DNA of 64,000 nt from positions 315,573 through 379,572 of the forward strand of contig JBBDHU010000001.1 in NCBI GenBank assembly GCA_040880705.1, given 5' to 3'. Positions 5,503-26,385 of this stretch are shown here, in pieces. The notes beneath the pieces were generated by a model. The model was not told where the DNA came from. It was given only the letters and a program-made list of their open reading frames with translations, and did not search any database. Within the stretch, counting starts at the first letter, position 1, and each line of letters opens with the position of its first letter. Position numbers and translations under genes: made by a program. This DNA is from Actinomycetota bacterium. GTDB lineage: Bacteria; Actinomycetota; UBA4738; JBBDHU01.

Positions 5503-5526
5503 GAACCGTTTGGTCTGCCTGAGAGA

Positions 5527-9898: not shown

Positions 9899-11185
9899 CT
9901 AGGCTTTTTCCGCGTGCTGGAGGAACCGCTGCCACTCCGATTGCCAAAGAGCGTCGGTCTCGGGATCGAGCGGGAGCAGCATCTGCGACCGCTCGAACTG
10001 TTCGGGCGTGATCAACTCGGATCGCTCGAAGGGACCGTGCATCCTTACTTCATCACCGTTAAGGGTCGCGTGATAGGGGCACTCGACCCACGGTTGCTCG
10101 CACTTCAGGAGAGCGGGAGTCTCTCCGATCCCTTTCAGCGGAGGCTGGTACCCGTTCCACATGAAATTCTCAACGGCCACGTTTGAATCGAGCAGGTAGT
10201 TGACGAACGCGTGGGCCAGGACGGGATTGCTTCCTCCCGGGAGGATTGAGGTTAGGTCGTTGCCGACGATCCCATCCCCGTCGCTCGGCCAGAAAAAGTA
10301 AGGGGGGGAGTGGCTGCTTTTTCCCACGCGCGGCGACGAATAGACATCTCCCGACCATGACTGAGCCACGTCGATCCCTGCAGGGAGTCCATAGTATGCG
10401 GCTTCCGGGGTGACAAGTCTTGGGCCTAGCCGGATAAGGTCGTCGGTCGCCCGTCTGAGCGAGCCTACATCGTTTGTATTGATATCAGCTGCTCCGTTAC
10501 GCAGTAGTGCCATCCCGATGGCCTCCCGATATTCGTTCAGAACGGCGGCACCGTTCTTGTAGCGCCAAAACACGTCGTATGGGCCGTTCGCAAAGGGTTG
10601 CTCGGGAGGGATACTGGCCAGCTCGTCCCGGATCAAGATCCCGGTTCCGTAAACTGTGTAAGGAACCGAGTATCTCTGCCCCAAGTCGTAAAATGGCGCG
10701 CCTCGCCGCGTAAAAGACGTCCAGAGGTTCCCTAGGTTTGGCAAATATTCGTGATTTAGAGGCCGCAGCTCCTTCGACTGGACGAGCTCGCCCAATACTT
10801 CGACAGTGGGAAAGAACACGTCGAAGTCCCGCTGGGCTCCGCGGATTCCCGCAACCCCCTCTTGGATCGTCTCGTAGTTCTTGACCTCGTACGAGACGTC
10901 GAACTTCTTCGCAAAACTCTCCAGGACGTCCTCGTAGAGGTACTCCCGCCATTGATAGACCTTGAGCGTCGCGCCCTTCTCGATCTCGAGGCCGCTCGCG
11001 ATCGGAGGGTTGTCTCCGTAGATCGGCCAGGTGACGGGATTTTCCTTGCGAACCAGGGGGATCGAAGACGTCCTTGGTTTAGGCCTGGTCGGGGAGCACG
11101 CAGCGAGCAGCGACCCGCCCAGCGATAGGCCGGCGGCCGCCGCCGCCGATGACCTCAGGAACTCGCGCCGGGAAAGGGATCGCAT
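9899..11185 (-). CDS. PotD/PotF-like polyamine-type ABC substrate-binding lipoprotein (third paralog), Tat signal
   Basis: MRSLSRREFLRSSAAAAAGLSLGGSLLAACSPT (RR motif plus lipobox). Body colinear with the 704..2044 protein (KVYQWREYLYEDVLESFAKKFDVSYEV, GYSVPY, WSGDV). The 36-aa upstream extension in the track was ignored. Confidence 0.8.
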   Translation of the reverse strand: MRSLSRREFLRSSAAAAAGLSLGGSLLAACSPTRPKPRTSSIPLVRKENPVTWPIYGDNPPIASGLEIEKGATLKVYQWREYLYEDVLESFAKKFDVSYEVKNYETIQEGVAGIRGAQRDFDVFFPTVEVLGELVQSKELRPLNHEYLPNLGNLWTSFTRRGAPFYDLGQRYSVPYTVYGTGILIRDELASIPPEQPFANGPYDVFWRYKNGAAVLNEYREAIGMALLRNGAADINTNDVGSLRRATDDLIRLGPRLVTPEAAYYGLPAGIDVAQSWSGDVYSSPRVGKSSHSPPYFFWPSDGDGIVGNDLTSILPGGSNPVLAHAFVNYLLDSNVAVENFMWNGYQPPLKGIGETPALLKCEQPWVECPYHATLNGDEVRMHGPFERSELITPEQFERSQMLLPLDPETDALWQSEWQRFLQHAEKA

Positions 11186-11293
11186 TCGATGTCCATCTTG
11201 AGATGTGTGGGCCGGTTGGGCAACGGGTATCCCCCTGACCAGCGCACCTAAAGTTTTCGGCCTATTTCTGCCGATACCTAAAACTAGGTACAT

Positions 11294-12538
11294 ATGGTCT
11301 CGACCCTCGCACGTGCTCGGATAAGGCTCCCAGGCAAGCTGGCCGGCATGTTCTTGCTGGCCTCCGGGATCCTCACGATCGTCACCCTTCCGCTGGCCGC
11401 CGCGGACCTGAACGTCCCCGGAACGGCAGCCGTCGGCGTGGCGGCCGTCGCCCTCGGCGTCCTTGCCTGGGTTCTCCCCTGGGACCGCTGGCCGCGATCG
11501 GCAACGCTGGCCCTGGTTCCCCCGGCCTTCGTTCTGATTGCCCTAGGGAACCTGTTCGGAGGATCCGACGTGCACCTCTACGGCATCTTTTTCGTACTCG
11601 CGTTCGTTTGGCTCGGGGTTGCGCACCCGCCGCGCCGCTCGCTCATGGCCGCGCCGCTCGCTGCCATCGCGTACGTCGTCCCGCTCTTCTTCCTCCCGGG
11701 CGATATCGCATCCGGAGTGGGATCGGCAATCGTGACGGTCGGGGTGTGCGTCCTGGTAGGCGAAACGCTTGCCTGGTCGCGGCGCCGCGTTTCGGAGACC
11801 GAGCGCCTGTTGAAAGCGGAGCATTTGCAGACGGAGCACTTCAAGGAGCTGGATGAAATGAAACGAACGGTCCTTCACGCCGTGTCTCACGAGCTTCGCA
11901 CGCCCGTTTCCTCGATCCTGGGTTACTCGGTCACGCTCCAGCGCCAGGGCGAGGACTTGGGTTCTCCGCAAAGGCGGGAGATCGCCACCCGCATGGCGTT
12001 CCAATCGCGAAAGCTGCTTCAGATGCTCGAGGACTTGCTGGACCTCGACCGCATCGATCAGGGTCTCCTCGAGCCGAATCGCGAACCGGTCGACGTGGGC
12101 GCGCTGACCGCCCGGGTCGTTCGCGAGCTCGACGTCCTGCGAGGGCGAGACGTTCGAATGCAGATCCTTCCGATCGTGGAGTCCGTCGACGCGGTGAAGG
12201 TCGAGCGGATCGTGACGAACCTCCTTACCAACACGGCCAGGCACACGCCGCTGGATTCGGTTATCTGGGTGCGCGTTGTGCCGGCGGACGGCGGAGCCGA
12301 AGTCGCCGTCGAGGACAACGGTCCAGGAGTCCCTGCGGAGCTCCGCGAAGCGGTGTTCGAGCCATTCCGGCGAGCCGACTACGCGGAGGGCTCGAGCGGT
12401 TACGGAATCGGGCTGTCGATAGTCGCGCGCTTCGCCGAGCTTCACGGCGGCCGGGCTTGGGTCGAGGACCGGCCGGGCGGTGGCGCGTCCTTCAGGGTCG
12501 TCTTGCCGGGCCCGCCCGCTATGGCGCTGGGTGCCTGA
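11294..12538 (+). CDS. Membrane sensor histidine kinase (HisKA + HATPase_c), orphan
   Basis: About four N-terminal TM helices. H-box VSHELRTPVSS. C-terminal GYGIGLSIVARFAELHGGRAWVEDRPGGGASFRVVLP. No response regulator adjacent. Confidence 0.7.
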   Translation: MVSTLARARIRLPGKLAGMFLLASGILTIVTLPLAAADLNVPGTAAVGVAAVALGVLAWVLPWDRWPRSATLALVPPAFVLIALGNLFGGSDVHLYGIFFVLAFVWLGVAHPPRRSLMAAPLAAIAYVVPLFFLPGDIASGVGSAIVTVGVCVLVGETLAWSRRRVSETERLLKAEHLQTEHFKELDEMKRTVLHAVSHELRTPVSSILGYSVTLQRQGEDLGSPQRREIATRMAFQSRKLLQMLEDLLDLDRIDQGLLEPNREPVDVGALTARVVRELDVLRGRDVRMQILPIVESVDAVKVERIVTNLLTNTARHTPLDSVIWVRVVPADGGAEVAVEDNGPGVPAELREAVFEPFRRADYAEGSSGYGIGLSIVARFAELHGGRAWVEDRPGGGASFRVVLPGPPAMALGA

Positions 12539-12588
12539 GCAAGTACCTCTTTTGCTCCAACCGGTGATTCGCCTATAGATTCCGCTCG

Positions 12589-14211
12589 ATGCCGGACGAG
12601 CGAATCTACGACGTGATCGTCGTCGGCGGGGGTCACAACGGCCTGACCTGCGCCGCCTACCTGGCGCGCGCCGGGCTGAGCGTCCTGGTTCTGGAGCGCC
12701 GCGATGTCTTGGGCGGAGCGGCCGTAACCGAGGAGCCGTGGCCCGGATACCACGTGTCCAGCGCCTCGTATGTCGTGAGCCTCATGCCGAAAAGGATCGT
12801 CGACGAACTCTCGCTGAAGCGCTACGGCTACAGGGTTTCCCTTATCTCGCCCGACTACTTCGTTCCCTTCCCCGACGGATCCTCGATCACCTTCTGGGGC
12901 GATATGGAGCGAGACCAGGCCGAGATCGCCAAGTTCTCGAAGAAGGACGCCGAGGCATTCGCGGGGTTCGACGAGTATCTGGAACGGATAGGCCACCTCC
13001 TTCACGACCTGCAATTCGTGATTCCCCCGAACCTTCGCCTTCAGGATCTGCCGAAATGGGGATCGCTCGCCGGCAGGTTCCGGAACTGGACCGGGCGGGA
13101 CATCGCGGAAGTAATCCGGCTCTTCACGATCAGCGCATCCGACCTGCTCGACACCTGGTTCGAGGACGATCGCGTGAAGGGGGCGCTGGCCACCCAATGC
13201 GTGATCGGTTCATGGAACGGGCCGATGAGCCCGGGGTCCGCCTACGTTCTGCTTCACCATTGGGTCGGGGAAGTGGACGGGCAAGCCGGGGCGTGGGGAT
13301 GGGTCTACGGCGGCATGGGGGCGCTCAGCTGGTCGATCGCCCAGTCGGCGAAAGCGTCGGGGGCGCGGATAAGGACCGACGCTCCGGTCAAGCGCATCAT
13401 CGTTGCGGGCGGCCGGGCCACGGGTGTCGAACTGGAGAACGGCGAGGGCATTCGCGCGCGACGTGTCGTATCGAACGCCCATCCGGTGCTCACATACCTA
13501 GACATGGTCGGCGAGGAGCACCTCCCCGCCCAGGTCGTCGGCGACATCAAGAGGTATCGCACACGCTCGGGATCGGTGAAGGTCAATCTCGGCCTCTCGA
13601 AGCTGCCACTTCCTTCGGCGATGGGAGAGGATGCTGGCAACGTCCACAAAGGCCTCATGGCGATATCTCCATCGATCGAATACCTGGAAAAAGCGTGGGA
13701 CGACGCGAAATACGGCGGCATGTCGAAGCATCCTTACGTCGAGGCGGTGTTCCCGACCGCGCACGAGTCCGAGATCGCCCCCAAGGGCAAGCACATCGCC
13801 CTCGCGTTCTGCCAGTTCGCCGCCTACGACCTGAAACGAGGCAAGTGGGAAAAGGAACGCGAGAAGTTCGGCAAGAGAGTTATAGAAACGATCGGCGAGT
13901 ACTGTCCGGGATTCGAGGACACCGTCGAACACATCGAAGTTCTGGGGCCGCGAGATCTGGAAGAGCAGTTCGGGCTCGTCGGTGGAAGCATCTTCCACGG
14001 CGAACTCGCTCCAGACCAGCTGTTCATGCTCCGGCCGATCCCGGGATACGCCGACTACCGCACCCCGGTCGCCGGCCTTTACCTTTGCGGCAGCGGGACG
14101 CACCCGGGGGGCGGGGTAATGAGCGTCCCGGGATACAACGCCTCCAGGGTCGTATTGCGCGACTTCAAGCGAGGGCAACTCGTCGACAAGGTGCTCGACT
14201 TCGGGCGCTAG
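12589..14211 (+). CDS. CrtI/COG1233-family FAD-dependent oxidoreductase, paralog 3 (most divergent copy)
   Basis: MPDERIYDVIVVGGGHNGLTCAAYLARAGLSVLVLERRDVLGGAAVTEE. Has SYVVSLMP, FSKKDAEAF and C-terminal LYLCGSGTHPGGGV. Confidence 0.8.
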   Translation: MPDERIYDVIVVGGGHNGLTCAAYLARAGLSVLVLERRDVLGGAAVTEEPWPGYHVSSASYVVSLMPKRIVDELSLKRYGYRVSLISPDYFVPFPDGSSITFWGDMERDQAEIAKFSKKDAEAFAGFDEYLERIGHLLHDLQFVIPPNLRLQDLPKWGSLAGRFRNWTGRDIAEVIRLFTISASDLLDTWFEDDRVKGALATQCVIGSWNGPMSPGSAYVLLHHWVGEVDGQAGAWGWVYGGMGALSWSIAQSAKASGARIRTDAPVKRIIVAGGRATGVELENGEGIRARRVVSNAHPVLTYLDMVGEEHLPAQVVGDIKRYRTRSGSVKVNLGLSKLPLPSAMGEDAGNVHKGLMAISPSIEYLEKAWDDAKYGGMSKHPYVEAVFPTAHESEIAPKGKHIALAFCQFAAYDLKRGKWEKEREKFGKRVIETIGEYCPGFEDTVEHIEVLGPRDLEEQFGLVGGSIFHGELAPDQLFMLRPIPGYADYRTPVAGLYLCGSGTHPGGGVMSVPGYNASRVVLRDFKRGQLVDKVLDFGR

Positions 14212-14260
14212 GCGCCTTCCACCTGCTACTTTCTGAGCCCCAGACCGAGGGCTTTCATCC

Positions 14261-15394
14261 ATGGCCGTAGAACCCAGGGAAGTAACCGATCGTGCTCGCT
14301 CCGAATGGCGTCCCAAGGCGACGCTGCCCGGAGACGCCTACCACCGGCCTGAAGTGTGGGAGCGCGAGAAGGAGCTGATCTTCCAGGCAGCGTGGTACTG
14401 CGTCGGTCGCGAGGAGGAGATCGCCGAGCCGGGCGACTTCATGGTGCGAGACGTCGCCGGGGAGGGCGTGCTGCTTGCTCGCGCGAAGGGCGAGAAGCTC
14501 AGAGCCTTCTACAACGTGTGCCGCCATCGCGGAACGCGGCTCTGCGACGGTGAGGGGCACGCGAAATCCAACGTGTTCGTCTGTCCCTATCACGCGTGGA
14601 CTTACGACACCGCCGGGAACCTTCTCGGCACTCCGAACGTTCACGAGGACGAAGGGTTCGACAGATCGTCCAACTCTCTTTGGCAGATGGCGGTAGAAGT
14701 ACAGGACGGATTCATCTACGTGAACATGTCGAGCGACCCGGAAACTCTGGGCGACTTCCTCTCACGCAACCCCGAAGGCGATCCCGCGGAACACACCCGC
14801 TGGGGATTGGACGAACTTCGTCTCGGTCACCGCATCGACTACGAGGTCGCCGCGAACTGGAAGATCATTCTCGAGAACTACAACGAGTGCCTGCATTGCC
14901 CGAGCATCCATCCGGAACTCGTGAGCCTCGTTCCGCTGTTCAAGAAGGGCCTTGTCGAGGGCGAGCGCGGGGCTGAGCTGGTGCACGGCGCACAGACGCT
15001 GTCCATGGATGGGACGACCAACCGCCCGCCCTTTCCGAGCCTCGAGCCCGAGGACTGCCGTGTTTACTTCGGCATGACGGTGTTCCCGACCTTCATGATC
15101 AACTACCAGCCGGACTACGTGATGACCTACCGGCTCGAACCTAGGGATCCGCTCAACACCTTGGTCATAAGCGAGTTCCTATTTCGCCCCGAGGTCATCG
15201 AGTCGGCGGATTTCGATCCCTCGGGTGTCGTTGACTTCTGGGATCTGGTCAGCCGCCAGGATTGGTCGGTGTGCGAACGGGCGCAAAAGGGTGTTCGCTC
15301 GCGCGCGTTTTCCAAGGGCGGGGTCTTCCCCTTCAACGACCGGTGGGTGCACGAATTCAACCGGCGCTATCGGGAGTCGATGGACGAGGGCTAG
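14261..15394 (+). CDS. Rieske [2Fe-2S] non-heme-iron oxygenase alpha subunit (GbcA / CntA / stachydrine-demethylase-like)
   Basis: Rieske motif CRHRGTRLC...CPYHAW, followed by a mononuclear-iron catalytic domain (NYNECLHCPSIHPEL). 377 aa. Confidence 0.8.
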   Translation: MAVEPREVTDRARSEWRPKATLPGDAYHRPEVWEREKELIFQAAWYCVGREEEIAEPGDFMVRDVAGEGVLLARAKGEKLRAFYNVCRHRGTRLCDGEGHAKSNVFVCPYHAWTYDTAGNLLGTPNVHEDEGFDRSSNSLWQMAVEVQDGFIYVNMSSDPETLGDFLSRNPEGDPAEHTRWGLDELRLGHRIDYEVAANWKIILENYNECLHCPSIHPELVSLVPLFKKGLVEGERGAELVHGAQTLSMDGTTNRPPFPSLEPEDCRVYFGMTVFPTFMINYQPDYVMTYRLEPRDPLNTLVISEFLFRPEVIESADFDPSGVVDFWDLVSRQDWSVCERAQKGVRSRAFSKGGVFPFNDRWVHEFNRRYRESMDEG

Positions 15395-15416
15395 ACTCCC
15401 GCCACTGGGGGCTTGA

Positions 15417-16565
15417 GTGGATCCGATCTCGGCCGACACAATCACGAACGACATCTACGCCGGGCCATTTCACGAGCGACAGAAGGCAGCCGGCGGAACT
15501 TTCTATGAGGACATGGGCGGGCTGTGGACGCAAGCCTTCTCCGATCCGGTCGGCGAATACTGGGCGGTCCGTCGCGGAACGGCCATATGGGACGTTTCTT
15601 CGCTGGTCAAGTTTCGGCTTACCGGTTCCGATGCGCTTGCCGCACTCGACCGCCTGACAACCCGGCGTCTCTCCGGTGCGGATCCCGGAGTCATACGTTA
15701 CGGCATGATTCTCGATGAACGGGGCCGGATGCTCGACGAGGGGACCTCGCTGGCCGTTTCGCCGACCGAGGCTTACTTCTTCGGCAACGACGAACGCGAG
15801 CGGTTCGTCGAGCACTTGAACTCTCACACGCGGGACTTGGAAGTCACGATCGAGAACGTGACCACGAGGATTCCGAACATCGCCGTACAGGGGCCGGGGT
15901 CCTACGCTCTGCTTTCAGCGCTCTCGGATACGGAATTCGCCGGGCTGGGGTGGTTCCGGTTCATCCCGCAGCCCGTTCGGATCGCCGGAGTGCCGGGATT
16001 GCTATCGCGAACGGGGTTCACCGGCGAACTCGGATACGAATTCTTCCTGCTCGACGAAGGTGAGGGCGCGGGCCGGCTGTGGGACGCGATCGTCGAGGCC
16101 GGAGCCGCGCCGATCGGCCTCGATGCGATCGAAATGCTGCGTGTGGAAGCGGGTTTGGTTATCCAAGAGGAGGACTACTTTCCCGGCGAAACGGATCCGT
16201 ACGACCTCTCGCTCGATTCGTTCATCGACATCGACGGGCACGCTTTCGTCGGGCGAGAAGGGGCCGCGGAGACGGCTACCGCTCCTCTCCGGCGGTTCAA
16301 GACGCTCGTGTTCGAGGGCGACGGTGTCCCCGACCCTGGGGAGCCGGTTACCAAGAACGGCGTCGTCGTGGGCGACGTGAGGAGCGCCGAGCGCACGCCC
16401 CGCTACGGCGCGATTGCGCTTGCCGTTTTGCAAAGTCGTTCGGCTCGGGAGGGCGACACGGTCGAGGTCGGCGAACGAACGGCCACCGTGCGGGGCCTTC
16501 CCATCGACGACCCGAAGAAGGAACGCCCGCGAAGCGATCCGCTCAATCCCAAGATGGCCGGTTAA
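15417..16565 (+). CDS. GcvT-family aminomethyltransferase-like protein (folate-binding; DmdA/GcvT/DMGO C-domain-like), copy 1
   Basis: GTG start 6 nt after CTGGGGG. GCV_T-type fold signatures (IWDVSSLVKFRLTGSDA, IAVQGP, SRTGFTGELGYEF, EMLRVEAG). Stop is 3 nt from the start of the next crtI-like gene. Confidence 0.75.
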   Translation: MDPISADTITNDIYAGPFHERQKAAGGTFYEDMGGLWTQAFSDPVGEYWAVRRGTAIWDVSSLVKFRLTGSDALAALDRLTTRRLSGADPGVIRYGMILDERGRMLDEGTSLAVSPTEAYFFGNDERERFVEHLNSHTRDLEVTIENVTTRIPNIAVQGPGSYALLSALSDTEFAGLGWFRFIPQPVRIAGVPGLLSRTGFTGELGYEFFLLDEGEGAGRLWDAIVEAGAAPIGLDAIEMLRVEAGLVIQEEDYFPGETDPYDLSLDSFIDIDGHAFVGREGAAETATAPLRRFKTLVFEGDGVPDPGEPVTKNGVVVGDVRSAERTPRYGAIALAVLQSRSAREGDTVEVGERTATVRGLPIDDPKKERPRSDPLNPKMAG

Positions 16566-16567
16566 AA

Positions 16568-18184
16568 GTGGCTGCCAACACCTACGACGCGATCGTGGTG
16601 GGCGGGGGACACAATGGCCTCGTCGCGGCCGCGTACCTGGCCAAGGCGGGGGCGCAGACCTTGGTTCTGGAGGCGCGTGAACGAACCGGAGGGGCGGCGG
16701 ACACCAGCTCCCCGTTCCCCGATCTCCCCGATGTGAAGGTCACCACGCTCTCGTATGTGATGAGCCTCATGCCCCCGTCGATCATTCGCGACCTGCAATT
16801 GGAGAACTTCGGATACAAGGTCTTCCCGATGGGCCCGACCTACGCGCCGCAGCCGGGCTCCGGCACCCTTCGGGTGAGCGAAGACGAGGGTCTTCGCGAG
16901 CGCGTGGCGAAGTTTTCGAAGAAGGACGCCGATGCGATCGGCGGCTGGGGCGAGTGGATAGAAAGAAGCGCGAACCTCCTCGGCCCGATCCTGATGCAGA
17001 CGCCCCCGCCGGTGGGCTCAACTGCGATCGGTGACCTGATCGAGCAGGCCAAGTTCGCTCTGAAGCTTCGAAAGGGGATGACCGAACGCCAGGCGGCAGA
17101 CATAACGAAGCTCTTCACGATGTCGGCGGCCGACCTGCTATCCGAATGGTTCGAGTCCGACATTGTGAAGGGCGCGCTTTCGACCGACGGCGTCATCGGC
17201 ACCTGGGCCGGTCCCGAGGAGCCGGGAACCGCGTACGTCCTGATGCACCACCTGGTCGGCGACCTCGGTGACGGGCAGATCTCGGAGTGGGGTTATCCCG
17301 AAGGGGGGATGGGAGCGGTCTCGCGGGCGATTCGCGCGTCGGCGGAGAGCTTCGGTGCGGATGTTCGCGTGGGCTCTCCGGTCGAGAGGATTCTCGTCGA
17401 GGACGGCCGCGCGACCGGGGCCGTTATCGAAGGCGGGGAAGAGCTTCACGCACCGGTCGTCGTCACCGCTTGTCACCCGAAGATCACCTTCCTGAAGCAG
17501 CTCGATCGCGGCGATCTTCCCGGAGACTTCGTGCGGGACATCGAGAACTGGAAGACGCGAAGCGGCACCGTGAAGATCAACATGGCCCTGTCGAGGCTGC
17601 CGGAATTCCGTGACGACCCGGGCGCCGGACCGGAAATCCAAAGCGCCTCGATCATGATCGCGCCGAATCTCCGCTACCTGGAGCGGGCCTTCGAGGAGGC
17701 AAGAGGCGGCAAGCCGGCGACGGCTCCTTTCTCCGAGACATGTATCCCAACCGTGTTGGACCACACACTCGCTCCCGAGGGAACTCACGTCATGTCGATG
17801 TTCACCCAGTGGGTGCCCCACGAGTGGGCGAACGAACGCCACCAGGACGATCTGGAGGCATACGCCGACCGGTTGGTCGACATCCATGAGGACTTCATGC
17901 CGGGGTTGAAGGACTCCGTCCTGGGGCGCCAGGTGATCGGTCCCTGGCAGATGGAGAACGAATTCAACCTGATCGGCGGGAACATCTTTCACGGCGAGCT
18001 GGCGCCGAACCAGCTTTTTCACATGAGGCCGGCGCCCGGGTACGCGAACTACAGGACGCCGATCCGCGGGCTCTATCAGGCGTCGTCGGCAACTCACGCG
18101 GGCGGGGGCGTCACGGGCATGCCGGGACATCACGCGGTTAGGGAGATTGCCCGCGACCGCAAGCTTCGACGCAGCAAGGGTTAG
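16568..18184 (+). CDS. CrtI/COG1233-family FAD-dependent oxidoreductase, paralog 4
   Basis: GTG start (VAANTYDAIVVGGGHNGLVAAAYLAKAGAQTLVLEARERTGGAADT). TYSYVMSLMPPSI and FSKKD motifs. The tracked ORF carries a 163-aa spurious upstream extension. Confidence 0.75.
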   Translation: MAANTYDAIVVGGGHNGLVAAAYLAKAGAQTLVLEARERTGGAADTSSPFPDLPDVKVTTLSYVMSLMPPSIIRDLQLENFGYKVFPMGPTYAPQPGSGTLRVSEDEGLRERVAKFSKKDADAIGGWGEWIERSANLLGPILMQTPPPVGSTAIGDLIEQAKFALKLRKGMTERQAADITKLFTMSAADLLSEWFESDIVKGALSTDGVIGTWAGPEEPGTAYVLMHHLVGDLGDGQISEWGYPEGGMGAVSRAIRASAESFGADVRVGSPVERILVEDGRATGAVIEGGEELHAPVVVTACHPKITFLKQLDRGDLPGDFVRDIENWKTRSGTVKINMALSRLPEFRDDPGAGPEIQSASIMIAPNLRYLERAFEEARGGKPATAPFSETCIPTVLDHTLAPEGTHVMSMFTQWVPHEWANERHQDDLEAYADRLVDIHEDFMPGLKDSVLGRQVIGPWQMENEFNLIGGNIFHGELAPNQLFHMRPAPGYANYRTPIRGLYQASSATHAGGGVTGMPGHHAVREIARDRKLRRSKG

Positions 18185-18194
18185 GCTGGCCGCG

Positions 18195-19583
18195 ATGTCC
18201 GACGACGGACGGCACGAGGACCTCGCCAAAGCAGAGGCTTCCGGCGATGTGCCTCGCCTCGTTGCCGCGCCGCCGGGGCCTGAGTCCCGCGCGCTACACG
18301 AGAGACAGGAGAAAGTGGCTTGGTCGGGCGCGCTCGACACGATGCCGATCGGTGTCAAACGCAAACACAACGCGACGATCGAGGACGTCGACGGCAACCT
18401 GCTTATAGACATGCTCACCGGTTGGGGGGCGACCAACGTCGGCGCCACTCACCCGGAGGTGATGGCAGCGGCCATAGACGCGCTCCGCGACTACGGCCAG
18501 GAGATCCCCGACTACATATCCTCTCCGCTCGTCGTCGAGTTGGCCGAGAAGCTGGTCGGGATCGCCCCGGACCCGCTCGCACGCGTGACGTTCGAGATAA
18601 GCGGGACCGAAGCGGTCGAGTCGGCGATGAAGTTCATGCGCGCGAAGAGCGAACGGCCGTTCATCCTCACGTTCCTCGGCCAGTATCACGGGGAGAGCTA
18701 CGGGGCTCAGGCCGTCGGATCCCAGGCAAGCGGCTACTCGCGATTCATGCGCGAGTTGAACAACGGTTACGTACACGTTCCCTATCCGAACCCCTACCGT
18801 TGCCCGTTCCACGCGACGCCCGCCGAATGCGACGGCGTTTGTGTGATCGATTACTTGCGCGAACAGGTGCTGCCCTACCTGGTGGCGGCAGACCGGGTCG
18901 CCGGCGTAATGATCGAGCCGGTTGCGGGCGAGGCCGGCGTATGGATCCCGCCCGACCCCTTCTGGCCGGCCCTAATGGAACTGTGCGACGAGAACGGGTG
19001 GCTCTGGTGTGCCGACGAGGCGCAAACTCTCTTCGGCCGGTGCGGCCCGATGTTCGCGACGGAGCTTTGGGATCTGCACCCGGATTTGATGGTGCTGGCC
19101 AAGGCCCTGTCGGGCGGCGTGCTGCCGATTGCCGCATGCCTCGGATCCGAGGACGTGATGGGCGACTCGGAGGTGTACGCCGGCGGCACCTACTCGTGGT
19201 TTCCGCCCTCCTGTGCCGCAGCCCTCAAGGGGATCGAGGTCCTGGAGCGCGACGACATGCTCGAGAAGGGGCGGCGTCTCGAGCGGATCGCCCTCGAGCG
19301 TCTTGTTCCGCTCGCGGAGAAGTACGAGATCGTCGGCGAGGCTCGCGTCAAGGGCCTCTACATCGGCGTTGAATTCGTGAAGGACAAGGATTCGAAGGAA
19401 AAGGCAATCGAAGAGGCGCGCGCCGTTCACTTCAATTGCCTGGAACGCGGGATCGTCGACATATACGACCGTGGGATGAACGTGGTCCGGTGGCAACCGG
19501 CGCTCACGATGCCGGAGGACATGTTGATGAAGGCGTGCGACATCTTGGAGGAATCGATCGCCGCTGTGGACGGCGCTCGCTAG
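18195..19583 (+). CDS. Class-III (fold-type I) pyridoxal-phosphate aminotransferase (putrescine/GABA/omega-aminotransferase-like)
   Basis: Start placed at MSDDGRHED. Characteristic EPVAGEAGVWIPP and VLAKALSGGVLPIAA (PLP lysine region). 462 aa. Confidence 0.75.
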   Translation: MSDDGRHEDLAKAEASGDVPRLVAAPPGPESRALHERQEKVAWSGALDTMPIGVKRKHNATIEDVDGNLLIDMLTGWGATNVGATHPEVMAAAIDALRDYGQEIPDYISSPLVVELAEKLVGIAPDPLARVTFEISGTEAVESAMKFMRAKSERPFILTFLGQYHGESYGAQAVGSQASGYSRFMRELNNGYVHVPYPNPYRCPFHATPAECDGVCVIDYLREQVLPYLVAADRVAGVMIEPVAGEAGVWIPPDPFWPALMELCDENGWLWCADEAQTLFGRCGPMFATELWDLHPDLMVLAKALSGGVLPIAACLGSEDVMGDSEVYAGGTYSWFPPSCAAALKGIEVLERDDMLEKGRRLERIALERLVPLAEKYEIVGEARVKGLYIGVEFVKDKDSKEKAIEEARAVHFNCLERGIVDIYDRGMNVVRWQPALTMPEDMLMKACDILEESIAAVDGAR

Positions 19584-20554
19584 GTCTGCTGCAGCACTCG
19601 GTCCAGCACGTCCAAGGGAATCCGCGACCCGCTGATAACCAGAACCGTCCGTCGTCCCGAGAATTCCCCGCTCTCTTTGAGAAGGGCGGCAACTGACAGC
19701 ACTGCCGCGCCCTCGACCATCACCGAGTGCCGCCCAAGAACCAGTCGAAGAGCTTCGGCGATCTCGTCCTCGTCCGGAAGTATCCACTTGTCTACGTGGT
19801 CAATGCAGATGGGAAGGGTCAGCGTTCCCTGCTCCAGAGGGCCGACGGTCGCGTCGGACAAGGAGGACTCCCAAGGGACATCCACAAGCCCTCCCGCCTC
19901 GACCGACTTCGCCATTACCGGGGAAGCGGCGGCCTGGCACCCAATGACTTCTGTCTTCTTGGAGGCGAGGTACCCCGCGATCCCCGCGATCAAGCCGCCG
20001 CCGCCCACCGGGACGAAAATCGCGTCGAATCCGTCCAATTGCCTTTCCAGCTCGGACGCGACCGTTCCTTGGCCGGCGATAACCCGGCGGTCGTTGTAAG
20101 CCGAGACGAAAACCCTTCCGGTCTGCTCGGCAAGCCTTCTCGCGACGAGGTCCGTCTCGTTTGGATCGCCTTCGATCAGGCGAAGGTTCGCGCCGCGTGC
20201 CTCCAGGGCCTCGATTTTCGCCGGCGAAGCATTCAAGGGCAGGAGGATCTCGCCCTCGATCCCGAGCACCGACAGCGCGTGAGCCATCGCGTTCGCGTGG
20301 TTGCCGGTGGACGAGGTAACCACCCCGCCTTGCTTTTCCTCCTGCGTCAGCGAAAGGAGCGCGTTGAAAGCCCCGCGCGCCTTGAACGACCCGGTGACCT
20401 GGAAGTTCTCGAACTTGAGGTAAACGTCGGAACCCGTGGCCTTCGAGAGAAACGGCGAGCGCTCGACCGGCGTCTCGCGAATGTAGGGGGCGATGGCTTC
20501 GGATGCTCGTTCGACATCGGTTGCGATCTGCGCGGCACTTAGGTCCTCGCCCAT
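19580..20554 (-). CDS. PLP-dependent threonine/serine dehydratase-family enzyme (fold-type II), no ACT domain
   Basis: SFKARG PLP-lysine motif and GGGGL glycine loop. Start ATG 20554..20552 shares its A with the TGA stop of the upstream DAO gene (ATGA overlap). Confidence 0.7.
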   Translation of the reverse strand: MGEDLSAAQIATDVERASEAIAPYIRETPVERSPFLSKATGSDVYLKFENFQVTGSFKARGAFNALLSLTQEEKQGGVVTSSTGNHANAMAHALSVLGIEGEILLPLNASPAKIEALEARGANLRLIEGDPNETDLVARRLAEQTGRVFVSAYNDRRVIAGQGTVASELERQLDGFDAIFVPVGGGGLIAGIAGYLASKKTEVIGCQAAASPVMAKSVEAGGLVDVPWESSLSDATVGPLEQGTLTLPICIDHVDKWILPDEDEIAEALRLVLGRHSVMVEGAAVLSVAALLKESGEFSGRRTVLVISGSRIPLDVLDRVLQQT

Positions 20555-21966
20555 CAGCCCAGGTTGTAACCGAGCCTTCTCGGAAGCCGCGCCAGCCATC
20601 GCAGAAACCGGTTGGGTCGCCGCCCCGAGTCCTCGGCGTCATCCGTCCTGACGATCGCTTCGTGGGTGATGTACGCGCCGACCGAAAGGAACGGCTCCGG
20701 CGGGAAGAGCTTCGGCTTGTACCCGACCAGCGGGAGGCGCGTGTACTCGTTCTCGGTTCCTAGAGTCAGACCGGAAAGGATCTTTCCTGCCATATGGCAC
20801 GGCCCGACGCCGCCGCCGGTGAAACCGAGCCCGTAGTGAACGTTCGCCGACGGGAACGATCCGAAGAACGGGATGTGGTAGCCCGAGACGTCGATCGGTC
20901 CTCCCCAGGCCGCTTCGATCGGCACATTGGCGAAGTTCGGAAACATCCTGTGGAGGTCGGTCACAAGCTTGTGAACCGACTTCTCGTCGTAGTCGAGCCG
21001 CGGTCCCATGCCGGTGCCCATGCCGGCCCGGGAAGACGCGCCCCCGAATGCGATCCTTCCGTCGGGCGTCGTACGAAGGTAGTGAAGTGACGGCCTCAGG
21101 TCGTAGATGCCCTGTCTGCCCGTCCAGCCGATCTCCTCGAGTTTCTCCGGAGCCGGCGCCGTGAGAGCGATGTAGCTCGCGCGGGGGAGGATGGCTCGGC
21201 GAAACCTCTTCCATTGCCGGGCCCAAGCATTGATCGCGATGACCGCCCTTCCCGCGCGGGCCCGCCCGCCGCGAGTCTCCGCGAGGAGCGGAAGGCCGGC
21301 GTGGAACCTCGTCACCTGGGTCTTCTCGAAGATTCGAACTCCCTGCTCGAGCAGCACCCTTCTAAGGCCACGAGCCAGCCGCGCCGGCTGAACCATGGCC
21401 ACCTTTGAGAGCGCAACTCCGCCCCGGAACACCGGCGAGCGGCATACGCCGGCGACTTCCTCGGGTGAGAGTTCGCGGACCCGTCCGGCGGCGACCCCGA
21501 GCCGGCGCATCAGCGCCAGCCAGTCCTCGGCAGCATCGTCCTGGGCGGGTGAGGCCGAGACGCCCACGTGGTCGGCAGGTTCCCACCAGGCGTCGACTTC
21601 GTGTTCCTCGCACCAGGATCCCATCTCCTCGATGGAGCGGGCCGCCAGCTTTCCGATCCTCAGCGCCTTCCCCTCGCCGAAGACGTCCACCATCACCTCT
21701 AGGTCGTCCCACAGGTCGTTCACGAACCCGCCGTTCCTGCCGCTCGGGCCGCCGCCGCAGATGTCCTGCTCGAGCAAGACGACGTCTAAGGAGGGTTCGG
21801 CTTGCTTGAGGAAGTGGGCCGTCCACATGCCGGTGTAGCCGCCGCCGATGATGATCACGTCGGCCTCGGTGTCGTTTGCGAGGGGCGGGCAAGGCTCACC
21901 CGGATCGTCTGCGAGAGCTTCACGCAACCAGTAGCTGCGCTTTCCTGCTAGGTCGGTGCCGATCAT
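20554..21966 (-). CDS. FAD-dependent oxidoreductase, DAO family (gamma-glutamylputrescine oxidase / sarcosine-oxidase-beta-like)
   Basis: [18 protein letters not shown] dinucleotide-binding motif. DAO-type C-terminus (GYHIPFFG...GLGFTGGGV). 470 aa. Confidence 0.75.
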
Positions 21967-22010
21967 GGGAACATGGATTCCATCCGGGCAACGAGATTAC
22001 AGGAGGTTCC

Positions 22011-23687
22011 TTGGCCCCCGATGATCGACCCAGAAGCTGGGAAGTCACCGACGGTCCCGAACGCGCGCCCGCTCGGGCGATGCTCCGCGCCGTCGGGCTC
22101 TCCGACGAGGACATGTCCCGGCCCCAGGTCGGCGTCGCTTCATCCTGGAACGAGGTCACGCCCTGCAACTACCACCTGAACAAGCTGGCCGCGTTCTCGA
22201 AGGAAGGGGTTCGCGCGGCGCAGGGCGTCCCTCTTGAGTTCACGACGATCGCGGTTTCGGACGGCATCGCGATGGGCCACGAAGGCATGCGCGCGTCCCT
22301 GATCAGCCGTGAGGTGATCGCGGACTCGGTCCAGCTTGTCATGCACGCGGAGCGGATGGACGCGCTGGTCGGAATCGCGGGCTGCGACAAGAGCGAGCCC
22401 GGGATGCTGATGGCGATGGCCCGGCTGAACCTCCCGTCGGTTTACCTCTACGGGGGAACGATCCTTCCCGGTACCTATCAGGGGCGGGACGTGACGATCC
22501 AGGACGTCTTCGAGGCCGTCGGGGCGCACGCCCGCGGAACCATGACGGACGAGGAACTGTCGGGCATCGAGCACGCCGCATGTCCGGGCGCCGGCTCGTG
22601 TGCCGGCATGTACACGGCGAACACGATGGCTGCGATCGGCGAAGCCATAGGGATGTCGCTCCCCGGCAGCGCTTCGCCACCGGCCGTCGACTACCGTCGG
22701 GAAGTCGCGGCCCGCGAATCGGGGGAGGCGGTCATGGCCCTCCTGGAGAAGAACATCCGGCCGCGAGACATCATGACGAGGCCGGCATTCGAGAACGCGA
22801 TCGCCGTGACGATGGCGGTTGCGGGTTCGACGAACGCCGTCCTGCACTTGCTCGCGCTCGCACGCGAGGCGGAAGTCGAGCTCGAGCTCGACGATTTCGA
22901 CCGGATCGCGCGCAAGGTTCCCCATCTCGTGGACGTTCGCCCCGCGGGCCGCTTCGTCATGTCGGATGTCGACCGCGTCGGAGGAGTTCAGGTCGTCATG
23001 AAGGAACTCTTGGACGCCGGGCTTTTGGACGGCGACGCGCTAACCGTGTCGGGTAAGTCGATCGGTGAGAATCTCGACGAACTGCATCCGGCGAAGCCGG
23101 ACGGCGACGTCGTGCGCCCGATCTCGAACCCGATCCATCCGTGGGGCGGAACCGTCATACTTCGCGGCTCGCTCGCGCCGGACGGCGCGGTTTGCAAGGC
23201 GGCCGGGATGGAGGGAACGGTGTTCCGCGGCCGCGCGCGCCCGTTCGAATCGGAGGAAGACGCTTTCAAGGCCGTCCTGAACAACCAGATCGAGAAGGGC
23301 GATGTGATCGTCATCAGGAACGAGGGCCCGGTCGGGGCGCCGGGGATGCCGGAAATGCTTGCGACCACAGCCGCGGTCGCCGGTGCGGGGCTCGGCAAGG
23401 AAGTCGCGTTGGTCACAGACGGGCGTTTCAGCGGAGCGACGAAAGGATTCTCGGTGGGGCACATCGCGCCGGAGTCGGTCGTCGGGGGACCGATCGGACT
23501 GGTTGAGGAGGGCGACACCGTCGTGCTCGACGTCGACAATCGCCTCATCGACCTGGAGGTGGACGACGCCGAGTTGGCCCGCAGGCGCGAAGGGTGGACG
23601 CCGAGGCCGCCGCGGTACGAGACCGGAGCCTTGGCCAAGTACGCGCGGCTCGTCTCCCAGGCGAACGAGGGGGCCGTTACCGGATGA
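22011..23687 (+). CDS. ilvD: Dihydroxy-acid dehydratase
   Basis: Conserved [16 protein letters not shown] and [17 protein letters not shown] (Fe-S cysteines) and full-length colinearity with IlvD. Start assigned to TTG 22011 (AGGAGG 4 nt upstream), because the tracked ATG 21876 would overlap the divergent gene. Start uncertain. Confidence 0.85.
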
Positions 23688-24916
23688 CGGATCTGCTCAA
23701 CCCACAGGCTCTCGAGTGTCGCGAATGCCACAAGCGATACCCGGTTGAGCCTCGGTCGATCTGCGAAGAGTGCTTCGGCCCGCTCGAGCCTCACTACGAC
23801 ATCGAGTCGATGTCCCCGGACGACTTCAGAAAGCAGGTGGAGACGGGGCCGCCGACGCTTTGGAGATACCAGGGCCTGCTGCCGGGCGGGAACGTGGACC
23901 GCGTCGATCTCGGCGGCGGCTTCACGCCCCTTCGAAGGGCGGACAGGCTCGGGCAAGCCATCGGCATCAGGAACCTGTGGATCAAGGACGACACGGTGAA
24001 TCCCACCAACTCGTTCAAGGACAGGGTCGTCTCCGTGGCCTTGACGATGTCGCGGGCATTCGGCTTCGAAGCGGTCGCTTGCGCTTCCACGGGAAACCTG
24101 GCGAACGCGACCGCAGCCCACGCCGCGCACGCGGGGATCCCGGCGTACATCTTCATCCCGGCCGATCTCGAGCGCGCCAAGGTACTCGCCACCGCGGCCT
24201 ACGGCGCGAACGTCGTCGAGGTGCAGGGGAACTACGACGACGTTAACCGCCTTTGCTCCGAGGTCGCCGAGACACTTCCGTGGGCATTCGTGAACGTGAA
24301 CATGCGTCCCTTCTACGCGGAGGGTTCCAAGACCCTCGGGTTCGAAACCGTCGAGCAGCTCGGGTGGCAGATTCCCGACCATGTAGTGGTGCCGGTAGCG
24401 TCGGGCGCGTTGCTGACGAAGGTGCACCGCGCATTCAGGGAGCTAATAGAACTCGGGGTCGTGAAGGACTACCCGGCGAGGATCAGCGGAGCGCAGGCGG
24501 CGGGCTGCGCTCCGGTCGCCAATGCCTTCAAGTCCGGCGCCGACGAGATCCAGCCGGTCAAGCCCGACACGATCGCGCGGTCACTCGCGATCGGCAACCC
24601 GGCCGACGGGTTCTACGCGCTGCAGACTGCGCGAAGCACAGGCGGCGGCATCGAGGCATGCACCGAAGAAGAGGTCATTCAGGGGATCCAGTTACTGGCC
24701 GAAACCGAGGGAGTGTTCGCCGAAACCGCCGGGGGCGTGACCGTCGCGTGCATGAAGAGGCTTCGCGAGACCGGAGTCATTCGCCGCGACGAGGAGACCG
24801 TCGCCTACATCACGGGTTCTGGCTACAAGACCGTCGAGGCCTTGGAGGGGAAGGTTCAGCCCACGATGTCGGTTGAACCCAAGCTGAAGGACTTCATGGA
24901 CAAGCTGGAGAAGTAG
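23684..24916 (+). CDS. thrC: Threonine synthase-family PLP enzyme with N-terminal zinc-ribbon
   Basis: [23 protein letters not shown] Zn-ribbon. NSFKDR PLP-lysine motif. Start ATG 23684 overlaps the ilvD stop (ATGA). Confidence 0.75.
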
Positions 24917-24930
24917 CACCCGGGCGAGGT

Positions 24931-26148
24931 TCAGCCGCTGGGAGTTCGCTCCTCGATCTTCCAGGGTGCGCCGTATTCGTTCAACAGATCCAGGAACGGC
25001 AAGCTGTCGAACGCCTCCGGCCCGAGAACCCCGGCACCTTTCCAGGTTCCCGAAGCGATCAACTCTAGAGCCGCGGCCGGGTTGATGGCCGTTTGCCAAA
25101 CGACTGCCTGCACGCCGTCATTGGCCATCGTCTCTTCGTTGTCCGCTACTTGGTACAGGTACACCTCGCGCGGTTTTCCGTCCTTATCCGTTCCGCGAAC
25201 CCAGGTCCCGGCGCATGTCTTTCCGGTCATCTTGTCGCCGAGCGTGGCCGGATCGGGAAGCGTCGCCGCGACTACGTCGCGGGGGGAGACTTCCACATTG
25301 CCCACCTTGACGGCATCGGTCTTGTCCAAGCCGAGCTTGTGGAGCGTCTGGAGGACTTCGACGAACTCGTCGCCGAGCCCGTATTTGAACGTCACGCGGC
25401 CGGCGTCGACCCAGCGAGGGATCAACATGACTTCCTCGTGTTCGACCATGACGCACTTGATGGTTCCGATTCCTTCGGGGAACGAGAATTCCTCGGGCTC
25501 GGAGAAAGGTTCCGTCGTGAACCACCCTCGGTCCTTCTCCCACACGATCGGTGGGTTGAGGCATTCCTCGATCGTGGTCCAGATCGAGAAGGTAGGCGCG
25601 AAGTCGAAGCCTTCGACCTCGAGGTTCGCTCCGTCGCGCACCCCTATCTCTTCGATCGAGTCGAATAGATGGTCCGCCGCATAGCGAGCGAACACGTCCG
25701 ACATCCCCGGCTCGACCCCCATTCCGACGAGCGCAAGTTGTCCTCGCTGCTCCCACACGTCCGCGAGGTCCCATTGGTACTGGCCGAGCGGCCGGCCCAG
25801 CTCCTCGTAAGGCCTCTCGGCGTGCGGTTGCGAAAGCGACATCGCCATGTCGACGTAGGTCGCCCCGGCCTCCAGCGACGCGTCGAATATTGCCGGCACG
25901 AACCGGGGGTCTGCGGCATTGAGGACCGCGTCACAGCCGTGTTCCTTCGCGAAGTGAGCGATTGCCGGCGCGTCCGATGCGTCCAGGCGAGCCGCCGAGA
26001 AGCGGCCGTCGTCCAAACTCTCGGCCACCGAGCGCGCGCGAGCCTCGTTCAGGTCGGTCAGGATGGCCGATTCGAAGAAATCCCTGTGCCTGACGACAGC
26101 AGCGAACGCGGAGCCCACCCCTCCGGACCCGACCACGAGGATTCGCAT
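24931..26148 (-). CDS. Saccharopine-dehydrogenase-family NAD(P)-binding enzyme (carboxynorspermidine dehydrogenase / homospermidine-synthase-like)
   Basis: Start MRILVVGSGGVGSAFAAV (Rossmann). Sacchrp_dh-type body. The tracked 64-aa upstream extension was ignored. Confidence 0.7.
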   Translation of the reverse strand: MRILVVGSGGVGSAFAAVVRHRDFFESAILTDLNEARARSVAESLDDGRFSAARLDASDAPAIAHFAKEHGCDAVLNAADPRFVPAIFDASLEAGATYVDMAMSLSQPHAERPYEELGRPLGQYQWDLADVWEQRGQLALVGMGVEPGMSDVFARYAADHLFDSIEEIGVRDGANLEVEGFDFAPTFSIWTTIEECLNPPIVWEKDRGWFTTEPFSEPEEFSFPEGIGTIKCVMVEHEEVMLIPRWVDAGRVTFKYGLGDEFVEVLQTLHKLGLDKTDAVKVGNVEVSPRDVVAATLPDPATLGDKMTGKTCAGTWVRGTDKDGKPREVYLYQVADNEETMANDGVQAVVWQTAINPAAALELIASGTWKGAGVLGPEAFDSLPFLDLLNEYGAPWKIEERTPSG

Positions 26149-26177
26149 GACGGGGGAGTCTACGGGGCCCCGGCCGG

Positions 26178-26206
26178 TTGACCGGGGCCGGGGAGCCGCG
26201 TAAACT
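26178..26206 (+). promoter_or_regulatory. Putative sigma70-type promoter of the ilvB leader (TTGACC, 17-nt spacer, TAAACT)
   Basis: TTGACC 26178-26183, 17-nt spacer, TAAACT 26201-26206. The same geometry and -10 box occur upstream of the leuA leader. Confidence 0.4.
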
Positions 26207-26217
26207 TGCTGGTTACG

Positions 26218-26277: not shown

Positions 26278-26308
26278 GCGCGACGGGCTGCATCGGCCTG
26301 CGCGCCAA

Positions 26309-26332: not shown

Positions 26333-26385
26333 GTACCCAAGCGCGAGCACCGGTGAAACCGTCAAATGAGAGGAGGAGGCGCGTC

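Follow-up and report, generated by a model that had tools for sequence, protein, structure and literature searches.

In dimethylglycine oxidase (DMGO) of Arthrobacter globiformis (1pj5) and in the mitochondrial dimethylglycine and sarcosine dehydrogenases (DMGDH and SARDH), a flavin dehydrogenase is combined with a GcvT-like folate module, which turns the iminium or formaldehyde stemming from the N-methyl group into 5,10-methylene-tetrahydrofolate (5,10-methylene-THF). The DAO-fold flavin domain (PF01266) of DMGO-type enzymes is fused to the folate domain in a chain of about 830 amino acids (aa). Heterotetrameric sarcosine oxidase (SoxABDG, or SOX; 2gag, 1vrq) is a multi-subunit N-demethylase: THF is bound by a GcvT-like region, and oxidation of the N-methyl group falls to a flavoprotein subunit of its own. 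In trimethylamine N-oxide (TMAO) demethylase (Tdm/TDM) of Methylocella and Paracoccus (9q59), the catalytic partner of the C-terminal THF domain is a fused, Zn-containing DUF1989-type core, and a flavoprotein is absent. To our knowledge, only DAO-fold flavoproteins (DMGO, DMGDH, SARDH and SOX) and the metal-dependent TDM core have so far been linked to oxidative N-demethylation coupled to folate. Here we describe a five-gene operon at positions 12589-19583 of a 64-kb stretch of contig JBBDHU010000001.1 from an uncultured Actinomycetota bacterium represented by a metagenome assembly; this whole stretch is called the window. Like the enzymes above, the operon brings together flavoproteins and a GcvT-like folate protein. 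In contrast to the enzymes of DMGO type, it encodes two paralogous flavoproteins of CrtI/PF01593-type fold, each of them a polypeptide distinct from the folate protein.

The identities of the genes, the folds of their products, the putative THF-site residues and the conserved linkage are directly observed. We envision that the operon encodes a split, THF-linked oxidative N-demethylase by which a quaternary or methylated omega-amino compound would be converted to a primary amine and then transaminated, a scenario to which we give an even chance of being correct.

Results

A tightly spaced operon of five genes

The five genes lie on the plus strand and have a high third-position G+C content. G1 (12589-14211) encodes a CrtO/CrtI-like flavin adenine dinucleotide (FAD) flavoprotein of 540 aa, G2 (14261-15394) a Group V-type Rieske non-haem iron oxygenase alpha subunit of 377 aa, G3 (15417-16565; GTG start, TAA stop) a stand-alone GcvT-family folate-binding protein of 382 aa, G4 (16568-18184; GTG start) a second CrtO/CrtI-like FAD flavoprotein of 538 aa, and G5 (18195-19583; ATG start) a class-III aminotransferase of the omega-amine/gamma-aminobutyric acid (GABA) type with 462 aa. 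Open reading frames (ORFs) and Pfam matches confirm the layout given in a preliminary description of this DNA, namely co-directional genes for a CrtI-like protein, a Rieske protein, a GcvT protein, another CrtI-like protein and a class-III aminotransferase. The tight gaps reported there also hold, at 49, 22, 2 and 10 nucleotides (nt) from G1 to G5, with one correction: the GTG start of G4 is 2 nt, not 3 nt, past the TAA stop of G3.

The order G1-G2-G3-G4 is repeated on two independent Logan contigs, which both stop within G4. L001 spans G1, G2, G3 and the start of G4; L002, which is shorter, carries the end of G1, then G2, G3 and the start of G4. A promoter and terminator consensus scan of 11000-20800 gave nothing above shuffled background, so the limits of the operon rest on gene spacing alone. 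Base composition is even along the window, with no anomaly pointing to recent horizontal acquisition.

G3 resembles the folate domain of TMAO demethylase

G3 carries both domains of a T-protein, PF01571 (GCV_T; 165.6 bits against a cut-off of 25.6, E 1.6e-48) and PF08669 (GCV_T_C; 34.4 bits against 25.9, E 2e-8). Among the NCBIfam models, it scores best for the THF domain at the C terminus of TMAO demethylase (223.7 bits), followed by GcvT (171.7), SoxA (114.3), DmdA (98.2) and DesA (21.8 bits). Consistently, its top match in the PDB is 9q59 (TDM), whose THF domain is its closest relative; G3 also aligns to the folate domain of DMGO (E 9e-25). Of the four residues reported to contact THF in Paracoccus TDM, three are unchanged in G3 (R480=R83, F582=F180, K782=K368), while the fourth, F672, is aligned to S268, with a Phe one position further on. 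The acidic pair D107-E108 aligns to the DD pair of TDM and T-protein, and E108 to the Asp of DMGO, which we take to act near the folate N5/N10 atoms. In Paracoccus TDM, the THF domain receives formaldehyde through a tunnel and converts it to methylene-THF, and the TDM complex also takes up extra copies made of the THF domain alone (PMC13619132). Judged by sequence, G3 appears closest to domains that capture one-carbon (C1) units from a partner catalytic site.

An ordinary glycine-cleavage T-protein was considered for G3 and rejected, in keeping with the first description. The GcvT models are missed (PRK00389, 171.7 against 300; TIGR00528, 109.6 against 235.85; PRK13579, 75.8 against 459 bits), and neither GCV_H nor GDC-P domains, the marks of gcvH and gcvP, are found among the annotated ORFs of the window.

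G1 and G4 belong to the CrtI/amine-oxidase fold

The flavoproteins match PF01593 (Amino_oxidase) with 60.3 bits for G1 and 47.2 bits for G4 (gathering cut-off 19.8), covering the profile in part. PF01266 is matched at residues 7-44 only, corresponding to profile positions 1-39 of 353, which form the dinucleotide-binding motif. Because PF01266 is not matched over its full length, a classical DAO-fold N-demethylase flavin domain was rejected for both. Fold comparison agrees with this and with the CrtI/amine-oxidase assignment made from the start: the overall fold is that of the CrtI/flavin amine-oxidase structural superfamily, and the best fold match is a carotenoid desaturase. No solved structure was found from the G1/G4 subfamily. 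The SoxABDG enzyme, for all its likeness in being multi-subunit, differs in that SoxB has the DAO fold, to which G1 and G4 are related only at the dinucleotide-binding motif, and in that its GcvT-like region lies inside the 960-aa SoxA. LSD1/KDM1A, which acts on histone lysines without a GcvT-like partner, is a distant relative only.

A bona fide carotenoid enzyme was likewise rejected for G1 and G4, as had been anticipated. The best full-length NCBIfam model for both is the CrtO beta-carotene ketolase (NF045689), for which G1 scores 264.8 and G4 225.2 bits against a cut-off of 1000. For crtI_fam (TIGR02734) the scores are 146.5 and 86.3 bits against 238.1. Compared with CrtO, CrtI and CrtD, the two proteins thus stand far under every cut-off, at about a quarter or less in the case of CrtO, and they lack a carotenoid context: none of crtB, crtE, crtY or isoprenoid genes is present among the annotated ORFs of the window. 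The motifs GGGHNG (residue 13), GGSIFHGE (465) and THPGGGV (504) are present in G1, which is about 44% identical to G4 and to two further paralogues of the window, U1 and U2 (see below). Another paralogue, P0067, 67% identical to G4, is located on the same contig (604 kb) as the window.

A Group V Rieske oxygenase and a class-III aminotransferase

G2 matches the Pfam families Rieske (E 8e-20) and Ring_hydroxyl_A (E 1e-50), and its nearest solved relatives are carnitine monooxygenase CntA (6y8j, E 1.5e-48) and, next, stachydrine demethylase Stc2 (3vca). The Rieske motif reads C87-x-H89...C108-x-x-H111. The stretch E209-C210-L-H212-C213-PSI-H217 supplies the bridging Glu, the His ligands and a Cys-x-x-Cys, aligned to CntA E205/C206/C209. 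Quareshy et al. (PMC10952381) describe the Cys-x-x-Cys pair with the bridging Glu as peculiar to Group V Rieske enzymes that act on quaternary ammonium compounds. By its motifs, aligned with CntA, G2 belongs to Group V, and its quaternary-amine signature bears out the GbcA/CntA-like label that it was first given. GbcA, Stc2 and CntA have in common with G2 the Rieske and mononuclear-iron motifs as well as the Cys-x-x-Cys beside the iron ligands. Unlike GbcA itself, G2 is far under the GbcA equivalog cut-off (NF058607, 184.5 against 670 bits), and a GbcA equivalog was rejected. No GbcB/CntB-type reductase or ferredoxin-reductase domain was found among the annotated window ORFs, the scan covering ORFs from about 100 aa upwards. 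An annotated reductase is also absent beside the Rieske gene in Mycolicibacterium (L054) and in alphaproteobacterial CrtI-CrtI-GcvT operons (L170, L173, L175, L176).

G5 matches Aminotran_3 (PF00202, E 2e-81, 274.2 bits, residues 49-453) and is below every specific equivalog cut-off in NCBIfam. Among solved structures, those of GABA aminotransferases and related racemases come closest to it. Orthologues with 70-86% identity come after the G4-type gene in L003, L083 and L166.

Conserved linkage of G3 and G4 genes in Actinomycetota

An alignment of G4 homologues was scanned against one genome per GTDB species and an alignment of G3 homologues against Joint Genome Institute (JGI) metagenomes; individual homologues were then located on long contigs, and all window proteins were mapped to the loci by tblastn. 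In 13 of 15 informative loci, a G3-clade gene (54-69% identity) is at most two genes away from a G4-type flavoprotein gene (70-77%): L003, L004, L083, L085, L087, L089, L090, L091, L092, L095, L166, L167 and L168. The flavoprotein is missing from L093 and L169 only. Six more contigs were too short to judge, one of which, L086, starts with the Glyoxalase_6 gene that usually separates the pair. Together with the analogous gene set of Alphaproteobacteria described below, these counts bear out the proposal that flavoprotein and GcvT-like protein form a conserved pair. Beside flavoproteins with less than about 66% identity to G4, G3-clade neighbours are no longer present.

Gene order is variable. 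Most loci have the CrtI-like gene, a small protein and the GcvT-like gene, the window has the GcvT-like gene followed by the CrtI-like gene, and L004 has a G1-like, a G4-like and a GcvT-like gene, with the flavoprotein genes overlapping. A Rieske gene accompanies the pair in the window and L083 only. The small protein between or beside the flavoprotein and GcvT-like genes is Glyoxalase_6 in L085, L086, L087, L091, L167 and L168; an unrelated protein of 144-152 aa occupies the same position in L003, L004, L089 and L166. The window contains neither of these, nor the DinB-like small proteins, MttB or formiminotransferase-cyclodeaminase (FTCD) that are found with the pair in other loci. One GcvT-family representative of 518 aa, P0489, is extended at its N terminus, and the extra segment weakly resembles the 144-152 aa family (E 0.002).

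Some of the loci hold further genes of related character. An MttB-family methyltransferase comes after the G4-type gene in L083 (11630-13099) and after the GcvT-like gene in L089 (5256-6707). Both proteins score under the cut-off for Pyl-type trimethylamine (TMA) methyltransferases, and their hosts are aerobic-looking Actinomycetota known as metagenome-assembled genomes (MAGs). L085 also has two DMGO-like DAO-FAO_M-GcvT fusions and a true amine oxidase. In L006 (11711-13680), a flavoprotein gene of the type of W5, a further window paralogue, is followed by FTCD and Glyoxalase_6, and in dozens of soil metagenome contigs (L102-L165) two tandem GcvT-like genes are followed by FTCD-Glyoxalase_6. 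The CrtI-like gene of L006 replaces the GcvT pair, which suggests interchangeable modules round a folate-dependent step. MttB or FTCD in the equivalent position points again to folate/C1 chemistry.

A similar gene set recurs in Alphaproteobacteria

Searching plasmids and chromids with G4 by tblastn retrieved alphaproteobacterial homologues at 36-39% identity. Fuscovulum ytuae has a TetR regulator gene next to a series composed of a class-III aminotransferase, two CrtI-like proteins, an aminomethyltransferase, two Rieske alpha subunits and a polyamine ATP-binding cassette (ABC) transporter. Rhizobium sp. SL42, Parasedimentitalea marina and Shinella zoogloeoides have TetR next to two CrtI-like genes and an aminomethyltransferase gene; an aminotransferase, Rieske-type genes and a polyamine-type ABC transporter are nearby, joined in two of these three hosts by an NADH:flavin/FAD oxidoreductase of about 680 aa. 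The operon genes overlap in three of these four hosts and are spaced by 11 nt and 0 nt in Parasedimentitalea. A protein of 81-83 aa is encoded after the aminomethyltransferase in the two Rhizobiaceae (SL42 and S. zoogloeoides), and this small gene after a GcvT-like gene is a further likeness to SoxABDG. Shinella sumterensis has a different series: enoyl-CoA hydratase, ADP-forming CoA ligase, hydroxyacyl-CoA dehydrogenase, CrtI-like protein and 'gcvT'. Altogether, five of the seven alphaproteobacterial loci inspected have the pairing; those of Paracoccus aminophilus and Sphingobium do not.

As far as sequence identity can tell, the alphaproteobacterial case is one of domain-set recurrence, not of simple orthology. 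The gene set is conserved across phyla and present in cultured hosts. The alphaproteobacterial loci combine an omega-aminotransferase and a PotF-type transporter with as many as three kinds of putative demethylase. Such a set fits, as substrate, a trimethylammonio- or methylamino-alkyl compound in which the nitrogen is not in the alpha position to a carboxylate.

Further CrtI-like clusters and the wider flavoprotein family

The preliminary description overlooked two further CrtI-like clusters in the window (2228-7623 and 51178-56834), which bring the CrtI-like paralogues to five (G1, G4, U1, U2 and W5). The former comprises, on the plus strand, U1 (2228-3850), U2 (3877-5502) and an ADP-forming acyl-CoA synthetase gene (5527-7623), and is followed, up to 9360, by an ArsR regulator and an acyl-CoA dehydrogenase gene on the opposite strand. 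The latter comprises an AsnC regulator gene (51178-51675, minus strand) and, on the plus strand, a metallophosphoesterase gene (51738-52835), W5 (52852-54456; 62% identical to G4) and the genes for two DmdA-like GcvT-family proteins, Ta (54428-55648; 320.8 bits for the DmdA model, cut-off 410) and Tb (55653-56834; 314.2 bits against the same cut-off). Ta and Tb share 62% identity, and each is about 25% identical to G3. W5-Ta-Tb is a second, independent adjacency of a flavoprotein and GcvT-family proteins within the window. In L068, L070 and L029, flavoproteins of the U1/U2 type, from other subclades, are paired with Tb-like proteins.

Database searches returned 'phytoene dehydrogenase-like' proteins of soil and sediment Actinomycetota in the thousands (8000 and 7877 scored matches); homologues also occur in Mycobacterium/Mycolicibacterium, Acidobacteriota, Rhizobiaceae and the roseobacter group. 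We counted neighbours within about 10 kb at 80 species-representative flavoprotein loci. An ADP-forming acyl-CoA synthetase, mostly directly downstream, is present at 43 loci, an acyl-CoA dehydrogenase at 31, a PotD-like binding protein at 30, a Rieske oxygenase at 26, a class-III aminotransferase at 24 and a GcvT-family protein at 10. According to this profile, the flavoprotein family as a whole therefore belongs to amine/betaine catabolism, and the GcvT link is limited to certain of its subclades. The commonest context is a CrtI-like gene followed by the ADP-forming acyl-CoA synthetase gene, found among others in Mycolicibacterium chubuense and M. chlorophenolicum; in M. chubuense, a TetR regulator of the BetI type and a complete ABC transporter are part of the cluster as well.

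Genes flanking the operon

A sensor histidine kinase gene (11294-12538, plus strand; HisKA and HATPase_c in Pfam) ends 50 nt upstream of G1. It is not kept in related loci, where AsnC or TetR regulators occupy that position. Divergent from it is the gene of a PotD/PotF-like solute-binding protein with a twin-arginine translocation (TAT)-type signal (9899-11293, minus strand; SBP_bac_8, TAT_signal and weak PotD/PotF matches), likely an uptake component. The longest ORFs of the two genes meet at 11293/11294 with zero intergenic nt; the true start of the binding protein is probably about 108 nt inside its longest ORF, i.e. downstream, because the homologue in L001 is called as 428 aa. The gene of a second PotD/F-like binding protein, recognised by domain and family model matches, is at about 704-2000 (minus strand).

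The 3' end of G5 overlaps by 4 nt a convergent gene for a pyridoxal phosphate (PLP)-dependent dehydratase-like enzyme (19580-20599, minus strand; PALP; PRK06815, 358 bits against a cut-off of 371). Next comes the gene of a DAO-fold flavoprotein (20554-21966, minus strand; DAO E 5e-54; TIGR03329, 372.6 against 632.8). This pair is syntenic in L083 and L177, and homologues of the DAO-fold protein adjoin GcvT-like genes in L099-L101. Beyond the catabolic cluster comes a block for branched-chain amino-acid biosynthesis (21876-36226: ilvD, ilvB/N, ilvC and two LeuA-like genes). The segment from the acyl-CoA dehydrogenase gene to the DAO-ilvD genes differs between related MAGs: L083 has a Rieske-GcvT-AsnC-CrtI-MttB-aminotransferase series there, and L177 a G1-like gene followed, in syntenic position, by an amidase gene.

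Further away, a BetA choline dehydrogenase gene (58984-60642, minus strand) passes the TIGR01810 cut-off (839.5 against 732.1) and adjoins genes for an ABC ATPase and a 680-aa fused permease (60828-63914). BetA and the importer make an ordinary betaine/choline setting, and with the PotD/F-like binding proteins they uphold the amine-related context first ascribed to the window. A fusion of an APH-type kinase and a class-III aminotransferase-like domain is encoded at 47656-49989 (PRK06148-like, 775 bits against a cut-off of 1128); it presumably resembles amino-alcohol kinase/phospho-lyase pairs. A homologue is found in L167 (11472-13787), near the CrtI-Glyoxalase_6-GcvT trio.

Discussion

How might the five proteins cooperate? 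We envision a scenario whereby the Group V Rieske enzyme G2 would attack a quaternary ammonium group, either by N-methyl hydroxylation, as do GbcA and Stc2, or by C-N cleavage, as does CntA. The CrtO/CrtI-like FAD flavoproteins would then dehydrogenate the remaining N-methyl C-N bonds to an iminium, with G4 as the confident candidate and G1 as a probable second. G3, free-standing and seated on the flavoprotein, would move the methylene group to THF and so give 5,10-methylene-THF, after the model of the GcvT-like domains of DMGO, sarcosine oxidase and TMAO demethylase. Finally, the class-III aminotransferase G5 would take off the resulting primary amino group. That the proteins form a complex, that the flavoproteins work as amine oxidases and that the steps come in this order are our proposals, as are any electron acceptor and substrate. 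Candidate substrates are gamma-butyrobetaine and other omega-trimethylammonio acids, N-methylated diamines or polyamines, and choline-type compounds. The presence of BetA and a betaine-type ABC transporter in the same window lends support to the scenario as a whole. A more elaborate version, which strikes us as improbable, would join G1, G4 and G3 in one heteromeric THF-dependent amine N-demethylase/dehydrogenase that passes its reducing equivalents to the reductase-less G2, converting a quaternary ammonium compound to a primary amine in a self-contained, redox-balanced cascade. It would represent a third, hitherto overlooked flavoprotein scaffold for demethylation coupled to folate, and its chemistry would offer a first biochemical handle on the orphan CrtO-like (COG1233) family, human PYROXD2 included.

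Several observations weigh against a split N-demethylase. The PF01593 matches of G1 and G4 are partial, and a HMMER search with G3 against 1.84 billion representatives returned no CrtI-like/GcvT fusion in the best 150 matches, 17 of which are longer multi-domain proteins (SoxA-like, TDM-like and other fusions). In the family at large, an ADP-forming acyl-CoA synthetase (43/80) or an acyl-CoA dehydrogenase (31/80) is more often a neighbour of the flavoprotein than is a GcvT-family protein (10/80), and the general reaction of the family may be on a carboxylate or CoA-bound skeleton. G1-type genes, which are very abundant, often have no GcvT neighbour (L177, L178). The alphaproteobacterial components are 26-43% identical to the window proteins, and on these identities the sets may be analogous assemblies rather than orthologues. 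G3 adjoins the Rieske gene in the window and in L083, which makes G2 another candidate partner, and a DAO-fold flavoprotein is encoded 1 kb downstream. As regards gene linkage, the earlier proposal that a GcvT-like protein is coupled to CrtI-like flavoproteins holds for G4 and less well for the G1 type. Of the larger proposal of a split demethylation module, the gene set, the folds and the linkage stand, while the rival partners of G3 (G2 and the DAO-fold neighbour) and the closer tie of the family to acyl-CoA genes tell against it.

Conceivably, G3 serves the Rieske enzyme. G2 would hydroxylate an N-methyl group, the carbinolamine would free formaldehyde for G3 to trap on THF, and the flavoproteins would act elsewhere, for example on the carbon skeleton. 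The adjacency of G2 and G3 (gaps of 22 nt in the window and 10 nt in L083) suits this idea, as do the neighbouring Rieske and GcvT-like genes of L029, L046 and L070, the position of the GcvT-like gene of Fuscovulum directly before two Rieske genes, and the precedent of TDM, where a non-flavin catalytic site can supply formaldehyde to such a THF domain. It is rendered unlikely by 11 of the 13 loci with the G3/G4 pair, in which the available sequence, in several cases a short contig, shows no Rieske gene, and by SL42, S. zoogloeoides and Parasedimentitalea, where the GcvT gene overlaps or abuts the flavoprotein genes and the Rieske genes are apart or on the other strand. Moreover, we know of no characterised Group V Rieske enzyme (GbcA, Stc2 or CntA) that uses a folate partner.

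Alternatively, G3 might need no partner at all and act as a self-sufficient THF-dependent methyltransferase of the DmdA/LigM type that takes a methyl group straight from an onium or ether substrate and forms 5-methyl-THF, the flavoproteins oxidising the demethylated product within a shared pathway and outside any complex. Stand-alone demethylases of the GcvT family do exist (the DmdA, LigM and DesA models), Ta and Tb score highest against DmdA (320.8 and 314.2 bits) and come after a CrtI-like gene, and MttB-family methyltransferases take neighbouring positions in L083 and L089. We nonetheless doubt this explanation, because G3 scores far better against TDM (223.7) and GcvT (171.7) than against DmdA (98.2) or DesA (21.8), and because the 2-nt spacing in the window and the gene overlaps in three of four alphaproteobacterial operons suggest subunits of one enzyme. 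A more deflationary account takes the CrtI-like proteins for C-C desaturases, ketolases or saturases of a lipid, isoprenoid or acyl chain that are close to GcvT within a catabolic island with no mechanistic coupling to it, or else pairs G3 classically with the DAO-fold neighbour. That a carotenoid desaturase is the best fold match and CrtO the best family model speaks for it, as does the frequent linkage to acyl-CoA synthetase and acyl-CoA dehydrogenase genes and, for the classical pairing, the DAO gene at 20554-21966 with the DAO/GcvT-like neighbours in L099-L101. We rate it as having a slim chance: all carotenoid models stay far under cut-off in a 64-kb window without crtB, crtE, crtY or isoprenoid genes, and the loci consistently hold amine-type binding proteins, aminotransferases, quaternary-amine Rieske enzymes and BetI/TetR or AsnC regulators. 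Furthermore, a DAO gene is not found in most G3/G4 loci and, where present, is convergent and not co-transcribed.

If the split N-demethylase is correct, how new is it? Folate-coupled flavoprotein N-demethylases are already known, and the enzyme proposed here would differ from them in its flavoprotein fold and its split architecture. A description of a CrtI-like/GcvT-like module was not found in the open-access literature. A CrtI/amine-oxidase-fold partner in the form of separate subunits would represent a new architecture for folate-coupled demethylation. Soil and marine bacteria would then have a so far overlooked pathway for mineralising quaternary and methylated amines with no escape of free formaldehyde. 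It would also assign a function to the very large orphan family of 'phytoene dehydrogenase-like' proteins. The family may extend to humans. PYROXD2 is an orphan human flavoprotein whose enzymatic function is still not known, and the HPS1/PYROXD2 locus is associated with trimethylamine and dimethylamine levels, in a study that favours HPS1 as the causal gene. PYROXD2 presumably belongs to the same COG1233/CrtO-like group as G1 and G4. If this kinship holds, the operon would suggest which activity to test for in the product of this human mitochondrial disease gene.

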